A stretch of DNA of 17,423 bases from Bacteriovoracaceae bacterium (lineage in GTDB: Bacteria > Bdellovibrionota > Bacteriovoracia > Bacteriovoracales > Bacteriovoracaceae): contig JBFGZE010000075.1 of assembly GCA_041586955.1 (NCBI GenBank), forward strand, positions 1 through 17,423, given 5' to 3'. Position 1 is the first letter of the stretch. Every line of letters starts with the position of its first letter. Below are positions 3,001 through 9,000 of the stretch, piece after piece. The position numbers are program-made.

Positions 3001-6000
3001 CGCGCTCAGCTATTGATGATATCGATATTAAAATTCAGGCCTATCAAAACTTTTTTAGATCCCTCGACTATACCAGCAAGGGAGAATTGCGTTTACCTTT
3101 AAGAACAATGATTTGCGAGACTTCACCATCAAGTGTTAACTTTTTCCACGGTTTTATTGTCGCCAAAACTCCGCCGCAGAAACCAGACCGTAGTTTTTAT
3201 TTCGTTTTATTAGTGGATACTTACCAAGAATAAATTCCTAAATTGGCCCCACAATAAGAACCTGCATAATAAATATTTAGATAGAATAGCGTTTAGAAAT
3301 CCAACGCTTAACCAAAACTCCTAAAATGAGAAAAACCATAAATAATAGCATTTTAGGCCTTAAAGTTACCATATTGACCAATCCAGGACCCGGACAAATT
3401 CCAACCAGGCCCCAGCCGATACCAAAAATAATGGATCCGACAACCAAGGGGGCATCAACTTTGGTGTTTTGCGGTAAAGACATTTCCCCACCACAGACAG
3501 GAGCTTTCCTTTTCATTAAAAAAGGAAAAGTAATAAGATTAACCACCACTGCCCCCCCCATAACGAAGGCCAAGTCCGGGTCCCATTGTCCAAAAATATC
3601 GAGAAAGCCAATGACTTTATTGGGATTAATCATTCCGGAAATAATAAGGCCAATAGAAAATAGGCCACCTGATATAAATGCCGTCAATAATCTCATCATG
3701 ACTCCTTAAAATAATTGCACGATAACGATCCCCGCTATCATAAAAATAATGGTGGCCATAATAGAACGCTTTGATCGCCGCGGAATGCCGCAAACACCGT
3801 GGCCACTGGTGCAGCCCCCCCCCAATCTTGTTCCAACGCCGACTAAAAAACCGCCCAGTCCAATGCGAAAGAAATCCTCATTTAATGAATAATTGAAAAA
3901 TTCAGGGAACCAATTGAGGCCAATAATGGAAGTGATAAAGAGTCCTAATAAAAAGGAGTATTGCCAGTCAATACTTGCAGGGGCCCACTTTAAAGAAGAA
4001 TCCAAAATACCACTTAGTCCCATTATTTTGCCGTTAAAGAGCAATAGTATTGAAGCCGCCACCCCAATTAAAATGCCTCCGAGAAGTGGGTATAGATAGT
4101 TTTCCATTTCAAGACTCCTGTAAGCTCACGGGAATTTTAATATAACTTTGTCCATTACTTTCGCTAGTAGGAAAATGGCCACCATCAATATTGATTTGAA
4201 TCGATGGCAATAATAATCGCGGGGCAGATAGTTCTGCATCACGCTTGGTGCGAAAACTGATAAATTCCTCTCGCGTCGTCTCTGCATTTAAATGAATATT
4301 ATGCGCCTTCTCTTCACCGATAGAACTTTCCCATCTCAACTCGCGTCCACCAGGCCTATAATCGTGCCCAACATAAACTTTAGTTTCATCTGGCAATTTG
4401 TATAATTTCTCGGAAATGGAATCATATAAATCACTCGCTGAACCGTCGGGAAAGTCACAGCGTCCCGTTCCAAAGTCGGGAATAAAAATAGCATCCCCCG
4501 TGAAAAGACAATCCTCGATAAGATAGGAGCTACAGGCCGGCGTATGTCCAGGTGTAGAAAAAACCTTGACTGAGAATTGCCCGATTTCCCAGGTTTCTCC
4601 GTCTTTTAACAAACGGTCAAATTGAGCACCATCTGTTCTCATCTCGCTCAGATTAAAAACATTTTTAAAAGTCTTTTGAACTTTACAAATACCTTCCCCA
4701 ATCCCCACCAGGGCATCAGGATAACGCCTTTTTAATTGGGCCGCTCCAGTTATATGATCGGCATGAGCATGAGTCTCCAAGATTGCACACAGCACCAATT
4801 TTTTATCTTTAAGAAATTGACCCACAGAATTAATGCTGTCCAGCCGGCATGTCGATGGGCCAGAATCATAATTAAGGACAGGATCAATGACAAGGGCATC
4901 CCCTCCCTCTTGCTGGTAAACAATATAGGTAAATGTACTGGTGTCTTTATCAAATAACGCTTCAACCTTCATAAATCCTCCGTCAATTCAGCCTATTATG
5001 CCTTAAACGATTCAAGACAGCCAGGCCATTTGCGGCATCGCCGAATAAGTGGATTACGTTTGAGACTATTGATCAAAGTATCAGTCTAAAGGCACTCTAT
5101 GTAAAATTTAACAACGAGTCGCGCCACTCAACCTAATTTAAAGATGTTAACCCCTGCTCGAACAAAGGCCAATATTGTCAAATCCTAGTTGATGGGGTTT
5201 ACCTTAGTCATAGATAATCAATAGGAGTTTATCATGAAAAAACTTATCGCTTTAATTGCTCTTGCGGCCTCTGTTTCGACATTTACCAGTGTTCCTCGTA
5301 GCTTTTGTCTTCGTTTTCTTCCTGACAATTTTCCAGCTTTTAAAGCTTGTATGAATGGTGATTACGATAGTCCTGCTACTCCAGCTGCTCCTGTTTCTGG
5401 CAATTAATTTTTGAAAAAGGCTTCTTTTTTAAAGAGAGGCCTTTTTAAAAATATCATCATAAGTTGATATTAATTGACGCCAATCGTAGCGCTCCATCTT
5501 TTCACTTAAAAATATTTCTGGCACACCATCAATTAATAAAGCTTCAAGCTTATCTTCTAATTCCTGCTCTTGCTCATAGAAAAATTGTGGGTACTCTTCG
5601 GAGTTTATATGTTCAGGGTAGGCCAAGCGCTTGGGAAGAATTGGATAAGCTCCTGCATAAATTGCCTCCACCACACTGATTCCAAAAAAATCATGAACAG
5701 AGGTGACAGGAATAATATCGCATTGCCGAAGCCACCAACAATAAGTTTGATAGGACTTGCAATGACCCCATTGGACAATATGATCTTTGAGTCGCTCCTG
5801 GGCCTCTTTAAAAATAGCAGGGTATTTTTTTTGCCCTTGACCTAAAACGACTAACTCAAAAGCGAATCCTTTTTCTTTCATGGTAAATAATAATTCGAAA
5901 AATTGATCAGGGTTTTTATCATGTTCCCAGCGGTGATTCCATAAAATGCGAGGGACACGCCCCTTATGGCGATCGAGAGAAGCAAGTATTCGCAAATCAA

Positions 6001-9000
6001 GGCCCAAAGGGAGCACCTGTGACTTGGCAGTAATATCATCGACAATTTCCAATTCTCTATAATCTGGCATAGAGGTCAAAAGCTTCTGCGCCCCCTTCAA
6101 GAAAGTAGAACGATTATACTCACTATTAAAAAGAACCTGCTCAGAGGCGTGCGCGGTGGTGAGGTTTTTAAAGGCGTAATGCTGGTCGCGCTTAAGACGC
6201 ATATCTTCACAACCATCAACCCAGGGATAAGAAAATTGATTTTCATGAAAGTATGTAATGAGAGGAATTTGTTGATAGCGAGGGAGCAAAAGCCCTTTAA
6301 ATGTGGCGACATCGAGCATATCACTGGCGACAAAGAGGTCAATTTTCCCCTTTGACTCATTCACCATTTTAGCGAGAGTCACAGCGCCTCCATAACTACG
6401 CCATTTCCAAAAGCGACCAGGCATAGAAAATAGAGTACTCTCATGCTGACTGAGTTCCATCAATTGATCGAGCCAAGTGAGATGGCTGCCACTATAAAAT
6501 GGTTCTAAAAAAGCTATTTTACTCATGGCCCCTCCTCAGTTTAATCGGCGATCAGCATACCGAATAACCATCACTTGTTAGTTCATACCCAGAAACATGA
6601 ACCTGACATCAAAAAAAGTTATGCACTTTTGGCCATTTTTTTAAAAAGAATGCTAGATTTTTGATCATGATAAAAAAACCACAAGTTAAGTTCAATGCAA
6701 AAACATATGCCTAAAGAAGAGAACCATAGATAAGTCTATTTTTCCAGTGGCGAGAACACATTTCAAAAGCAAAAACACGACATCGATCACGGGTACACTT
6801 CTTTCATAAATATCAACTCTTCCGAAGTTTTGGTTTTAATTATTAGCAGAAACCAGAACCAGACTGAATGGCCATGATATTATTTTATTTCTGATTATTT
6901 TGCCCCGCATATTTCTTTACCACCTATCCCTTTATAATAACGTTAATGGGAGTTTCAAGATGATTCGAATTCTTTTTCTTTTCGCTTTTTTATGTTCTTG
7001 CGCCAATGTCAAACAAATCGACCGCGGTCGCCTCTCCAGTCGCCTGATGCAATTTGACCCCACACCGGAAGAATCTCTCTTTATCAACAAGGTAAACTCC
7101 TACAGAGAAGGCGCAGCAGGCGGTAATGCTGCCGTTGGAGGTGGATGTGGATGCAATTAAAAGGAAGGTCTTACTTTGTTGTTTACTCATTTTCGGCCAA
7201 AACAGTTGGGCGATCGGAAAGGGTAAGGCCAAGTGGGTGCTTAATTTATATGCACAAAATGGTGACGGAGGTCATCAAATTTTCGATAATTCTAAAAATG
7301 AAGAAGCTTATGCCTTCGAACCCATGCTTTTTGTGGCCTACCAAATCAATAAAAAAACAAATATAAGTGGCCATTTTGTTTTTGATACCTGGACTGCAGC
7401 GAGTGACACCAAATTGGATGAAAGTACTGGTGCGAGTGGAGAGGGGATAAAAAGTCAGTCCAGGACGAGCGGTAGTCTAGCAATATCCAGAGATCATAAG
7501 AGCTGGAGATGGTCCTCTCAATTAGGAGTCTCCAGCGAATATGATTATCGCTCGCTCAACTTTGGAGGTAATCTTCAAAAGAGTTTTGCCCAAGATAATT
7601 TCGTTCTCAGTTTATCTCCACAAATTTACCTTGATCAGGCACGTGACTTTGATATTGCCTCTAATCAAACCCTCAACTTCAAAGGTAGAACCATCTGGTC
7701 AATGGATTTAAGTGGCAGTCAATTATTGACACCCAATGATGTTATTCAAGTCAGCTACACCTTTATTCATATGAATGGCATGCTTAATAATATCTCAAAC
7801 TCAGTTCATGTTTCATCAAATCCCTATAATAATAATTTTTCTCGTTATGACGAACGTTTACCCGATAAGCGATTAAGGCATGCACTTTCATCTAAATTAG
7901 TCCATGCTTTTAATGATGAAAATGCGGGCCATATTTCGTATCGCTATTATGAGGATAATTGGGATATAAATGCTCAAACTGCAGAGCTTGGCCACCGCCT
8001 CAGTTTTAACGATGATAAAAGTTTTCTGATGCTGACTTATCGTTTTTACGATCAAAGTCAAAGTCAGTATTTTAAAGAAAGTTTTCAGGTGGTCGAAACT
8101 CATATGACAAGTGACTCAGACCTAGCAAACTTTACTTCTCACCGCTTTGGTGGCCATTATTCTCATAAGATTGAAGATTCACAAATATTTGGAATGCTAT
8201 TAGCAAATATGGAATGGTCAGCTGCTACCTATTTTTCCTCCAGAAGTAATGGTCTCCAATCCCAAATTCTACAGGCCGGATTGGGAGCGGAGTTTTAAAT
8301 GAGTGATCATTTGGTTCTCATTAAAGAAAAGCATAGGGATTGTAAATTTTCTATTCAATGCTCCCCCTCTTATGTAGCACAGAGCAAGTTAAAGAGATCA
8401 TTCAATAAGATTTTCAGGAAATCGCGCGAATCGAAAATTTATGTACCGTTTTTCGCTTTGGACCATTCAATGAAGTTAATAATCACGCTGGAATATAACC
8501 CATCCAAGTGAATGACGAATTATTTAGGTTAATCCAAAAAGCACAATGATATTCAAAAGTATCACTAGGCATTGTTGATATTAATTATGCATCTGTTGGC
8601 CAATTATGGCGACAAGCAAAGTCTTAAGGGACTTGGGGGAATAAGAAAAGGCCTTAGGAATTGCAGATCTGCCACAAACTATTCTATTGGGTAAAGATGG
8701 CAAATCAAATTTCAAGGAATTAGGCCCTTCCAAAAACGCTTGAATAATTCCTTTTCTATTATTTTAATAATTGCGGGAGGGTTATTATTTTTTTTGAAAT
8801 TTCATCCCGTACGCGACGATAAACATTAAGGATTTCCTCTTCGTCGAGCATCTCTTGAGTCAAGCGTGGGGGATCATCAAACCCCATATGAATAATTTTC
8901 CCTCCTGGAAAGAGAGGGCACGTTTCATGAGCATCTGAGCAAACTGTAATGACATAATCAAAATGAATTTTCGGCAATTCATCTACGGTTTTTGATTCTT

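Follow-up and report, generated by a model that had tools for sequence, protein, structure and literature searches.

A bacterial relative of the animal tRNA-queuosine mannosyltransferase is a candidate glycosyltransferase of queuosine-34

Results

An intact QTMAN-family gene without operon partners

The window analysed here, a 17,423-nt stretch of a contig from a Bacteriovoracaceae bacterium, contains on its reverse strand a QTMAN-family gene whose frame is intact and whose start codon is the ATG at 6526-6524 (Table 1). The survey's finding had described a full-length 365-aa gene at 5429..6526, and this description was borne out by an intact ORF with essentially equal Pfam figures. Upstream, the 373-bp intergenic region yielded nine promoter-like sites, against 4.8 ± 2.6 in shuffled sequences, so that no promoter site is established. 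Since a convergent 57-aa ORF lies beside its 3' end, the QTMAN-family gene is taken to be monocistronic; the small ORF itself is outside the QTMAN-family system. The queuosine genes of this genome are located on other contigs.

Table 1. Features of the QTMAN-family locus, with positions counted along the window.
Feature	Position	Strand	Basis
QTMAN-family GT-B glycosyltransferase CDS, 365 aa	5429..6526 (stop included)	-	ORF list; Pfam; AlphaFold2 model; homologues begin at the same residue
N-terminal QTMAN_N domain, residues 3-176, presumed acceptor-binding half	5999..6520	-	Pfam; invariant columns
C-terminal GT4 domain, nucleotide-sugar-binding, residues 192-334	5525..5953	-	Pfam; invariant columns
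GGAGG resembling a Shine-Dalgarno sequence, 4 nt upstream of the ATG	6531..6535	-	direct sequence reading
Intergenic region, 373 bp, between the QTMAN-family gene and a divergent DUF4266 gene	6527..6899	.	presumed promoter location
Promoter-like hexamers in the 373-bp intergenic region	6766-6738 and 6695-6667	-	promoter-like site scan
57-aa ORF, convergent, whose N-terminus resembles a signal peptide; 21 nt separate its end from the stop codon of the QTMAN-family gene	5234..5407	+	

The protein combines a QTMAN_N domain with a GT4-type domain

QTMAN_N, which occurs as a single copy in the genome, matched residues 3-176 over model positions 1-168 of 168 (Pfam; E 8.9e-56, 188.7 bits, cut-off 25), and was followed in the same chain by a Glycos_transf_1 match at residues 192-334 (Pfam; E 2.8e-11, 43.7 bits, cut-off 26.4). 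The AlphaFold2 model of the 365-aa protein (mean pLDDT 96.9, pTM 0.93) had a compact two-Rossmann fold in which no membrane or signal segment was evident. Foldseek returned at least 500 PDB structures at E ≤ 0.001; the top folds among the matches listed were retaining GT-B enzymes with soluble acceptors, namely SPS, BshA, GlgM, MshA and the GDP-Man-using PimA (TM 0.65-0.74).

Comparison of four animal and ten bacterial sequences gave 31 invariant columns, 17 of them in the N-domain, the half that binds the acceptor in GT-B enzymes. Those of the N-domain comprise GSH (13-15), WxWR (40-43), Y92, HENQ (94-97), YP (100-101), FN (133-134), P154 and K168, and those of the C-domain W196, HRW (198-200), D203, K204, F223, Y262, G282, E287 and P298. 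In the model, the invariant columns probably lie directly after beta-strands, where residues of a Rossmann fold line the cleft, and the C-domain lysine and glutamate probably belong to the nucleotide-sugar site common to retaining GT4 enzymes. All 12 positions invariant across 70 family members were kept in this protein. K204, invariant in the 70 and in four further sequences, lies in the motif HRWEHDKNPDQFF (HRWEHDKNP), identical in sea-urchin GTDC1; it may be the equivalent of K296, described in an excerpt of a preprint (10.64898/2026.06.28.735034) as the catalytic lysine of human QTMAN, the K296A mutant being without manQ. Two properties were counted against a tRNA substrate, namely a pI of 5.87 (family median 6.23) and the lack of an obvious RNA-binding signature in the 365-aa protein.

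Homology to animal QTMAN/GTDC1 covers both domains

The full-length homology to animal QTMAN previously claimed for this gene proved real in both domains, including the acceptor-side one: in BLASTP, the sea-urchin GTDC1 (P0273) shared 35% identity over residues 4-178 (E 1e-21) and 39% over residues 194-356 (E 2e-35). We regard the 365-aa protein as an orthologue-grade relative of animal QTMAN/GTDC1. In a FastTree phylogeny of 70 prokaryotic or metagenomic representatives and five animal proteins, the animal proteins formed one branch (support 100), neighboured by MAG proteins labelled Actinomycetota and Planctomycetota by their sources. The stem of this branch (0.64) did not exceed the median length of the terminal branches (0.9), and no rate jump of the kind that a change of function might leave is apparent.

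Queuosine pathway and substrates in the genome

We re-found most of the queuosine route listed by the survey, that is, two Tgt genes (each 509 bits, equivalog cut-off 306.75), QueA adjoining one of them, QueC, two QueD genes and a QueF truncated by the contig end. Two members of that list fared less well: the QueE-like match was weak (50.5 bits), and the QueG-like gene, at 177.9 bits, stayed under the 200-bit curated cut-off, which was counted against the tRNA reading. The gene for tRNA-Asp(gtc) was recovered at the position reported before (C14:30690-30766), and the GUN-anticodon tRNAs for Asp, Tyr, Asn and His are all present, as are ManC-like and PMM-like genes. The same genome encodes a GluQRS-like protein (286 aa, a divergent homologue), which may already decorate Q34 of tRNA-Asp and may compete with the QTMAN-family enzyme for the same ring, a point likewise counted against the tRNA reading.

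QTMAN_N co-occurs with Tgt and QueA

Within the Bacteriovoracaceae, recounting raised the earlier figure of 31 of 236 genomes to 36 of 237 (own genome included), spread over 20 of 69 genera. Among 301 Acidimicrobiia genomes, QTMAN_N was present in 62, Tgt in 195 and QueA in 219. All 62 carriers had both Tgt and QueA, and none of the 106 genomes (35%) devoid of Tgt carried QTMAN_N (hypergeometric p = 3e-14, shared ancestry ignored). The gene was patchy and frequent, with a presence in 32% of the Tgt-positive genomes, and the Tgt-less genomes listed measured 2.0-4.4 Mb and were not reduced. A sample of 251 Actinomycetota gave the same picture, with Tgt in 12 of 12 carriers and QTMAN_N in 0 of 114 Tgt-less genomes (45% of the sample); five of these carriers were new, and Tgt and a canonical QueA were found in all five. 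Kinship ignored, the QTMAN_N family was confined to genomes with Tgt and QueA in both samples.

Of 50 carriers drawn from at least 12 phyla, 48 had Tgt, 47 had QueA and 49 had either or both, figures of little force alone since the two genes are very common. The own family showed a counter-trend: Tgt was found in 34 of its 36 carriers and not in the other two (G122, 84% complete; G179, 66% complete), compared with one Tgt-less genome among 201 non-carriers (Fisher p = 0.06). Neither Tgt nor QueA was found in one cross-phylum carrier (G034). These three Tgt-less carriers are incomplete MAGs or MAGs of unknown completeness. The Acidimicrobiia sample appears to consist of about six sub-clades, with Tgt missing from about two of them; the co-occurrence is thus phylogenetically structured, and the independent contrasts may be very few.

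Candidate acceptors and gene neighbourhood

An intact, full-length QTMAN relative, together with a family found, in the Acidimicrobiia and Actinomycetota samples, only in genomes capable of making queuosine-tRNA, leads us to conclude that some bacteria probably sugar-modify their tRNA. As for the 365-aa enzyme, we lean cautiously towards the view that it glycosylates queuosine-34 of tRNA. It would be a retaining glycosyltransferase of the GT-B, GT4-like type, soluble and cytoplasmic, which acts once Tgt, QueA and QueG have converted position 34 of the tRNAs with GUN anticodons to queuosine. Its C-terminal domain would bind a nucleotide sugar, most likely GDP-mannose by analogy with QTMAN and in view of the ManC-like gene, while the N-terminal QTMAN_N domain would hold the anticodon loop, and the hexose would be moved with retention to a hydroxyl group on the Q34 cyclopentenediol, yielding a hexosyl-queuosine. 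The acceptor, the sugar and any physiological effect are inferences, as is the target tRNA, which by analogy would be tRNA-Asp. The lack of operon partners fits this reading, tRNA-modification genes typically being scattered and standing alone.

The alternative that survives best, unlikely as we consider it, is that the protein belongs to GT4 but serves a soluble acceptor with no relation to queuosine, either a protein or a small metabolite such as those used by BshA, MshA and sucrose-phosphate synthase; the queuosine co-occurrence would then stem from shared ancestry. Such enzymes are the closest solved folds, the pI is acidic and the co-occurrence tests ignore kinship. Moreover, the 130 genes directly adjoining the family members at 70 homologous loci showed no conserved link to queuosine genes, in agreement with the survey, which had seen no conserved gene neighbourhood. 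Three of the 130 were RNA-modification enzymes (RluA-like at L026, MiaB-like at L033, RsmB/F-like at L078), approximately the chance level, and four were ManC/PMM or glycogen-related (L053, L070, L050 and L065), the latter in favour of an unrelated acceptor. However, no small-molecule-pathway partner recurred among the same 130 neighbours. Further against this alternative, the N-domain, with its 17 invariant positions, is not a generic GT4 N-domain but a separate family to which animal QTMAN also belongs, and an otherwise patchy and frequent gene was missing from every one of the Tgt-less Acidimicrobiia and Actinomycetota genomes, the Acidimicrobiia listed not being reduced.

A second alternative keeps the link to queuosine and changes the acceptor, which would be queuine or queuosine in free form (to be stored, exported or salvaged), tRNA bearing epoxyqueuosine or preQ1, or a 7-deazaguanine base of DNA. 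It accounts equally well for the conservation of the acceptor domain and for the confinement of the family to Tgt- and QueA-containing genomes, but we regard it as quite improbable. The animal enzyme works on Q34 in tRNA, according to the excerpted preprint (10.64898/2026.06.28.735034), and the presence of QueA in all 62 + 5 carriers means that the mature cyclopentene ring is available. Nor did our searches of 50,697 phage records and of IMG/VR turn up a full-length relative, the five phage matches all being to the generic C-domain.

A role in building the cell envelope (LPS, capsule, EPS or cell wall), suggested by the name 'glycosyltransferase involved in cell wall biosynthesis' that JGI assigns automatically and by weak NCBIfam C-domain matches to EPS glycosyltransferases, is very improbable: the NCBIfam score (28 bits) is far under the cut-off of 400, the compact two-Rossmann model has no evident segment for the membrane or for export, and none of the 130 neighbours was a glycosyltransferase, flippase or polysaccharide-export gene, whereas 11 of 26 neighbours of 14 further GT4 genes in the same genome, taken as a control, were glycosyltransferase or other polysaccharide-related genes. 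Finally, the patchy distribution in the family could suggest that the gene is a decaying or inactive relic that no longer has a function, an idea that is hardly credible given the intact frame, the good ribosome-binding site, the 12 retained family-invariant positions and the pLDDT of the model.

Discussion

Enzymes for queuosine glycosylation were assigned only in 2023, the original QTMAN paper being reportedly that of Zhao et al. in Cell. The QTMAN family is already named, by homology, in Pfam, NCBI and UniRef, and the present gene is an ordinary member of it; the co-occurrence with Tgt and QueA is the new result here, and gives a homology-derived name the standing of a prediction that survived one test able to refute it.

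The literature consulted treats glycosylated Q as an animal, mostly vertebrate, trait and credits bacteria with glutamyl-Q only; the excerpts of one article (PMC10690763) place sugar-modified Q in vertebrates and gluQ in bacteria alone, which was counted against the tRNA reading. The survey had likewise called glycosylated Q a vertebrate feature, which agrees with those excerpts; nevertheless, part of a mosquito paper mentions QTMAN, so that 'animal' is the safer word. Our broader proposal, on which we are evenly divided, is that sugar-decorated Q is not an animal invention: bacterial species with this family, a few percent of the total, would bear a hexose, put on by the enzyme, on Q34 of at least one GUN tRNA, the animal QTMAN proteins would form a single branch within a large and far more diverse bacterial family, and in bacteria like the present one the Q ring would be either glycosylated or glutamylated by a GluQRS-type enzyme, as alternatives or in competition. 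If true, this would extend a known hypermodification to a second domain of life, make it possible to trace where the animal enzyme came from, and offer structural work and the production of glyco-Q tRNA small bacterial enzymes that are easy to express. Cultured carriers of the family exist; Malonomonas rubra, Desulfuromonas soudanensis and Portibacter marinus are so named by the sources of their sequences.

Among known systems, PimA, MshA, BshA and sucrose-phosphate synthase are the best structural matches (TM 0.54-0.74, Foldseek E 1e-12 to 1e-10, sequence identity 10-17%), but in their N-domains they fall into other Pfam families, and their genes lie in pathway operons, whereas the QTMAN-family gene stands alone. 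According to the excerpts of PMC10690763, no bacterial enzyme other than GluQRS (YadB), the tRNA glutamyl-Q34 synthetase, is known to decorate the Q34 cyclopentene ring (in tRNA-Asp); GluQRS is unrelated to the QTMAN-family enzyme both in fold (a truncated class I aaRS) and in chemistry (an ATP-dependent glutamyl ester). The other animal glycosylator of Q34, the tRNA-queuosine beta-galactosyltransferase QTGAL (B3GNTL1), is presented in the preprint excerpt (10.64898/2026.06.28.735034) as an inverting, UDP-galactose-using enzyme for tRNA-Tyr; it belongs to a different family, and no QTGAL-type match appeared in the Pfam results for the 365-aa protein. Animal QTMAN (GTDC1) differs from the compact bacterial protein by a long inter-domain insert and by extensions, by a proline (in sea-urchin GTDC1) in place of N197, nearly invariant in bacteria, and by hosts that salvage queuine rather than synthesize Q de novo. 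The two nevertheless have the same architecture of QTMAN_N and GT4 C-domain and the HENQ, FN and HRWxxDK motifs in common, and a retaining GT-B fold, such as that of the bacterial protein, would be expected for the alpha-mannoside that animal QTMAN forms from GDP-mannose.

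Co-occurrence with queuosine genes

We lean towards the window protein being an enzyme that would glycosylate queuosine-34 (Q34) of tRNA by a retaining mechanism, with a nucleotide sugar, probably GDP-mannose, as donor. With Q34-tRNA as acceptor, the gene would be expected to disappear from genomes without Tgt. Of the 80 cross-phylum carrier genomes, 50 were searched, picked for their longer contigs: 48 had Tgt and 47 had QueA, G034 being the sole one with neither. This result says little, since almost every genome of those phyla has Tgt. Within the Bacteriovoracaceae, QTMAN_N was patchy (36/237 genomes and 20/69 genera, with 0/29 in the largest genus), and Tgt was matched in 234/237 genomes, including 145/145 of the high-quality ones. 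Carriers were two of the three genomes of this family without a Tgt match (G122, 84% complete, and G179, 66%; Fisher p = 0.06), a small counter-trend that is probably due to genome incompleteness. With few exceptions, the 234 Tgt-positive genomes had at least two Tgt matches, with QTMAN_N present or not; the duplication is therefore a family-wide trait unrelated to QTMAN_N, and a tie of QTMAN_N to the second Tgt was rejected.

The informative group was the Actinomycetota, sampled via a carrier of this phylum (locus L077, genome G047). In 301 Acidimicrobiia genomes at least 85% complete, QTMAN_N was found in 62, Tgt (E <= 1e-20) in 195 and QueA in 219; the carriers had Tgt in 62/62 cases and QueA in 62/62, and QTMAN_N was present in 0/106 Tgt-less vs 62/195 (32%) Tgt-positive genomes. 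An Actinomycetota-wide sample (N = 251, Tgt in 137) held 12 carriers, seven seen before and five new, all 12 of which had Tgt, while 0/114 Tgt-less genomes carried QTMAN_N; the five new carriers had Tgt (5/5) and canonical QueA (5/5). Hypergeometric p values, which ignore kinship, were 3e-14, 2e-10 and 6e-4; the five new carriers taken by themselves gave 0.04. The background counts for this phylum take in two unpublished genomes, G504 and G473, both non-carriers, and the statements on carriers are independent of both.

The prediction of Tgt dependence was open to failure yet held, and we weighted it accordingly, with kinship ignored. The alternative that the enzyme acts on an unrelated soluble acceptor and that the co-occurrence is an effect of ancestry we regard as unlikely but serious. 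The order of the genome handles suggests that about six sub-clades were sampled in turn, about two of them lacking Tgt, and the independent contrasts behind the co-occurrence may be very small in number. The listed Tgt-less genomes were not reduced (2.0-4.4 Mb), and a streamlined 1.0-1.1-Mb lineage kept Tgt and QueA and had no QTMAN_N. Another queuosine-related acceptor, with which the presence of Tgt in all Actinomycetota carriers sampled would also agree, seems improbable to us; the animal homologues of the window protein are tRNA-queuosine alpha-mannosyltransferases.

Separately, about 26 Tgt-less Acidimicrobiia (for example G301, G345, G353, G381, G397, G437 and G461) had a QueA-like gene that diverges from the canonical form (E 1e-51 to 1e-72, vs E <= 1e-96 for most canonical QueA in the Acidimicrobiia sample), and many Tgt-positive Acidimicrobiia had two QueA matches. 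These matches point to a putative QueA paralogue existing without a tRNA-guanine transglycosylase in this class.

Putative acceptor and sugar supply in the genome

The assembly (3.46 Mb, 194 contigs, 88% complete, the window being contig C75) contains a single copy of QTMAN_N, and the loci most similar to the window gene come from MAGs named Neomarinimicrobiota, Gammaproteobacteria and Bacteriovoracaceae. The queuosine route claimed for this genome in the survey's finding stood in part. Two full-length Tgt paralogues (mutual identity 50%), QueA immediately upstream of one of them, QueC, QueF at a contig end and two QueD/PTPS genes were present; the QueG-like gene had QueG as its top NCBIfam match, but its 177.9 bits fall short of the 200-bit cut-off, and the QueE-like match was weak and partial (50.5 bits). 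ARAGORN found 33 tRNAs, with tRNA-Asp(gtc) where the survey had placed it and GUN anticodons in tRNA-Tyr, tRNA-Asn and tRNA-His. With ManC and PMM from related loci as tblastn queries, genes resembling both were found (ManC-like, 34% identity over 360 residues; PMM-like, 44% over 538), which makes a supply of GDP-mannose in this genome plausible.

A candidate for a divergent glutamyl-Q synthetase accompanies the QTMAN homologue in this genome, a 286-aa truncated GluRS-like protein whose top NCBIfam match was GluQRS (174.6 bits, below the cut-off of 276.7; GluRS 127 bits). This GluQRS-like enzyme and the window glycosyltransferase may compete.

A stand-alone gene

The absence of a conserved gene neighbourhood, already reported in the survey, was borne out twice. 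All-against-all clustering of 959 ORFs from 80 loci gave no partner gene in more than 6/80 loci, and Pfam searches with the 130 genes directly flanking the homologue, from the 70 loci at which the ORF caller recovered it, gave no recurrent family apart from lineage-local synteny (DUF6515 and CycH-Ig in Thermodesulfobacteriota, RelA/GyrA in Anaerolineae, YceG/methyltransferase in Bacteroidota). RNA-modification enzymes accounted for 3/130 neighbours (RluA-like at locus L026, MiaB-like at L033, an RsmB/F-type methyltransferase at L078); the gene of the last overlaps the end of the QTMAN homologue by 18 nt, at 1/70 loci and so not as a general arrangement. Enzymes making or feeding GDP-mannose accounted for 2/130 (ManC at L053, PMM at L070).

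That the window enzyme is an envelope glycosyltransferase is very improbable, since a glycosyltransferase, flippase or polysaccharide-export protein was found among 0/130 neighbours at the 70 loci, vs 11/26 polysaccharide-type immediate neighbours (glycosyltransferases, Polysacc_synt/MurJ-type proteins, SLBB export proteins and a sugar-nucleotide epimerase) for 14 other GT4 genes of the same genome, one further match having no ORF by the caller. The family is therefore unlike envelope-polysaccharide GT4 genes. Genes for tRNA modification are typically scattered and stand alone, and the sites of QTMAN-family genes resemble them in this.

Consistently, the window gene is monocistronic, with 373 bp between it and the divergent DUF4266/DUF3570 pair and with a convergent 57-aa ORF ending 21 nt past its stop. 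GGAGG sits four bases 5' of its ATG; promoter- and terminator-like sites showed no excess over shuffles, and no tRNA and no Rfam family was found within the window. The survey's observation of an intact frame with the full QTMAN_N model and Glycos_transf_1 was confirmed, and an inert gene is scarcely credible beside it. NCBIfam has no specific model for the protein (top match 28 bits vs a cut-off of 400).

Elsewhere in the window lies a purine-catabolism cluster, and a Sulf_transp/DUF6691 pair (split YeeE/YedE-type sulphur transporter) stands immediately downstream of a metallo-beta-lactamase-fold protein, likely as an operon for sulphur-compound handling.

Features of the window and of related loci, with positions and strands
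Feature	Position	Strand	Remarks
Glycosyltransferase gene	window 5429-6526	-	unbroken 365-codon frame, ATG start
QTMAN_N	residues 3-176 (model positions 1-168 of 168)		Pfam E 8.9e-56, 188.7 bits
Glycos_transf_1	residues 192-334		after QTMAN_N; Pfam E 2.8e-11
Subtilase with Big_9/cadherin-like domains	window 3-2063	-	runs off window start
Two small Sulf_transp/DUF6691 membrane proteins and metallo-beta-lactamase-fold protein	window 3277-4972	-	
DUF4266 lipoprotein-like ORF and DUF3570 protein	window 6900-8298	+	ORF overlaps start of DUF3570 protein
747-aa UvrD-like helicase, with a low-molecular-weight phosphatase (LMWPc) gene after it	window 9193-11436	-	
Amidohydrolase (allantoinase-like), allantoicase, OHCU decarboxylase, HIU hydrolase	within window 11606-16445	+	purine-catabolism cluster (11606-16445)
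Membrane Urate_ox_N (PuuD-type) urate oxidase	within window 11606-16445	-	same cluster
Tgt	L002:1468-2583	+	contig C16, QueA adjoining; 509 bits vs equivalog cut-off 306.75
Tgt	L003:1480-2610	-	contig C7; 509 bits vs equivalog cut-off 306.75
GluQRS-like gene	L087:1435-2295	-	contig C101
tRNA-Asp(gtc)	C14:30690-30766		ARAGORN
RsmB/F-type (NSUN-like) RNA m5C methyltransferase, 265 aa	L078:11071-11868	+	Spirochaetaceae MAG

A catalogued family

Of 1.84 billion representatives scanned, 2776 matched at E <= 0.001, and 968 did so at the stricter E <= 1e-30; a word-indexed search scored 6929 clusters at E <= 1e-10; named cultured carriers include Portibacter marinus, Malonomonas rubra and Desulfuromonas soudanensis. 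Some bacterial members already go under 'tRNA-queuosine alpha-mannosyltransferase (domain-containing protein)' in NCBI and UniRef; earlier labels were 'DUF3524 domain-containing protein' and 'glycosyltransferase involved in cell wall biosynthesis'. Thus it is the homology that is on record, not the bacterial function, and the window gene is a further member of a family known and already named. Full-length relatives were absent from 50,697 phage records by tblastn (five matches, to the C-domain alone), and two scans of IMG/VR, one starting from the window protein and one from alignment A1, yielded no relative that could be confirmed; a link to phages and 7-deazaguanine in DNA was dropped on these grounds.

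In an unrooted FastTree of 70 representatives and five animal proteins, the animals formed one branch (support 100) with a stem of 0.64 vs a median terminal branch of 0.9; thus, the animal-bacterial distance is no greater than that between bacteria. Its neighbours were P0110 (support 86), P0067 (92), P0150 (95) and P0011, P0110 and P0067 being Actinomycetota and Planctomycetota MAG proteins by their source names. One protein of the window protein's own clade (P0008; 6 rows, support 97) is also on record from an alga, in an MMETSP transcriptome of Aureoumbra lagunensis, either as bacterial contamination of the culture or as an algal copy.

The abstract of one paper places sugar-modified Q in vertebrates and gluQ in bacteria only (PMC10690763). 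In the literature searched, the titles, abstract openings and some passages mentioned neither a bacterial QTMAN homologue nor glycosylated Q in bacteria, and the supplements of the original QTMAN report could bear on novelty. Glycosylated queuosine in bacteria would be the new part, if confirmed at the bench.

Comparison with the animal enzyme

An AlphaFold2 model of the window protein from 70 family members (mean pLDDT 96.9, pTM 0.93) has two Rossmann-like halves. Foldseek matches in the PDB were all retaining GT-B enzymes of a generic kind (sucrose-phosphate synthase, BshA, GlgM, MshA, PimA with GDP-mannose, glycogen synthase; TM-scores 0.54-0.74, identity 10-17%), and a PDB sequence search gave no QTMAN structure, its sole match being the generic GT4 entry 5i45 (E 5e-4). 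Protein charge was uninformative as a sign of RNA binding: the window protein, with a pI of 5.87, is acidic, and in the family the median is 6.23, with 14/70 members above 7.5.

A search for longer or fused forms gave seven proteins, two metagenomic (P0271, P0272) and five animal GTDC1 proteins, from sea urchin (P0273) and cestodes (P0274-P0277). The extra parts of the metagenomic forms and of P0129, an N-terminal extension, gave nothing informative by Pfam or NCBIfam and are probably read-through gene calls, and the animal forms with Snf7 or zinc-finger parts look like merged gene models; fusion partners were thus dropped as a functional clue.

The sea-urchin GTDC1 aligned with the window protein by BLASTP in two blocks, residues 4-178 (35% identity, E 1e-21) and 194-356 (39%, E 2e-35), separated in the animal protein by a long insert. 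An alignment of four animal and ten bacterial sequences had 31 invariant columns, in the N-domain G13, S14, H15, W40, W42, R43, A48, Y92, H94, E95, N96, Q97, Y100, P101, F133, N134, P154 and K168, and in the C-domain W196, H198, R199, W200, D203, K204, F223, Y262, G282, E287, P298, Y347 and W349. Almost all come right after beta-strands in the model, positions that we infer would line the inter-domain cleft of Rossmann-type GT-B enzymes. K204 lies in a motif, HRWEHDKNPDQFF, that is identical in the sea-urchin protein, and is likely the counterpart of human K296, which a preprint reports as necessary for mannosyl-queuosine formation (10.64898/2026.06.28.735034). The survey's interpretation was thus supported in part, as to homology with the animal enzyme, which extends over both blocks; glycosylation of Q34 would be its prediction. 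According to that preprint, QTMAN makes an alpha-mannoside from GDP-mannose (10.64898/2026.06.28.735034), and the retaining mechanism of the GT-B matches is consistent with this product.
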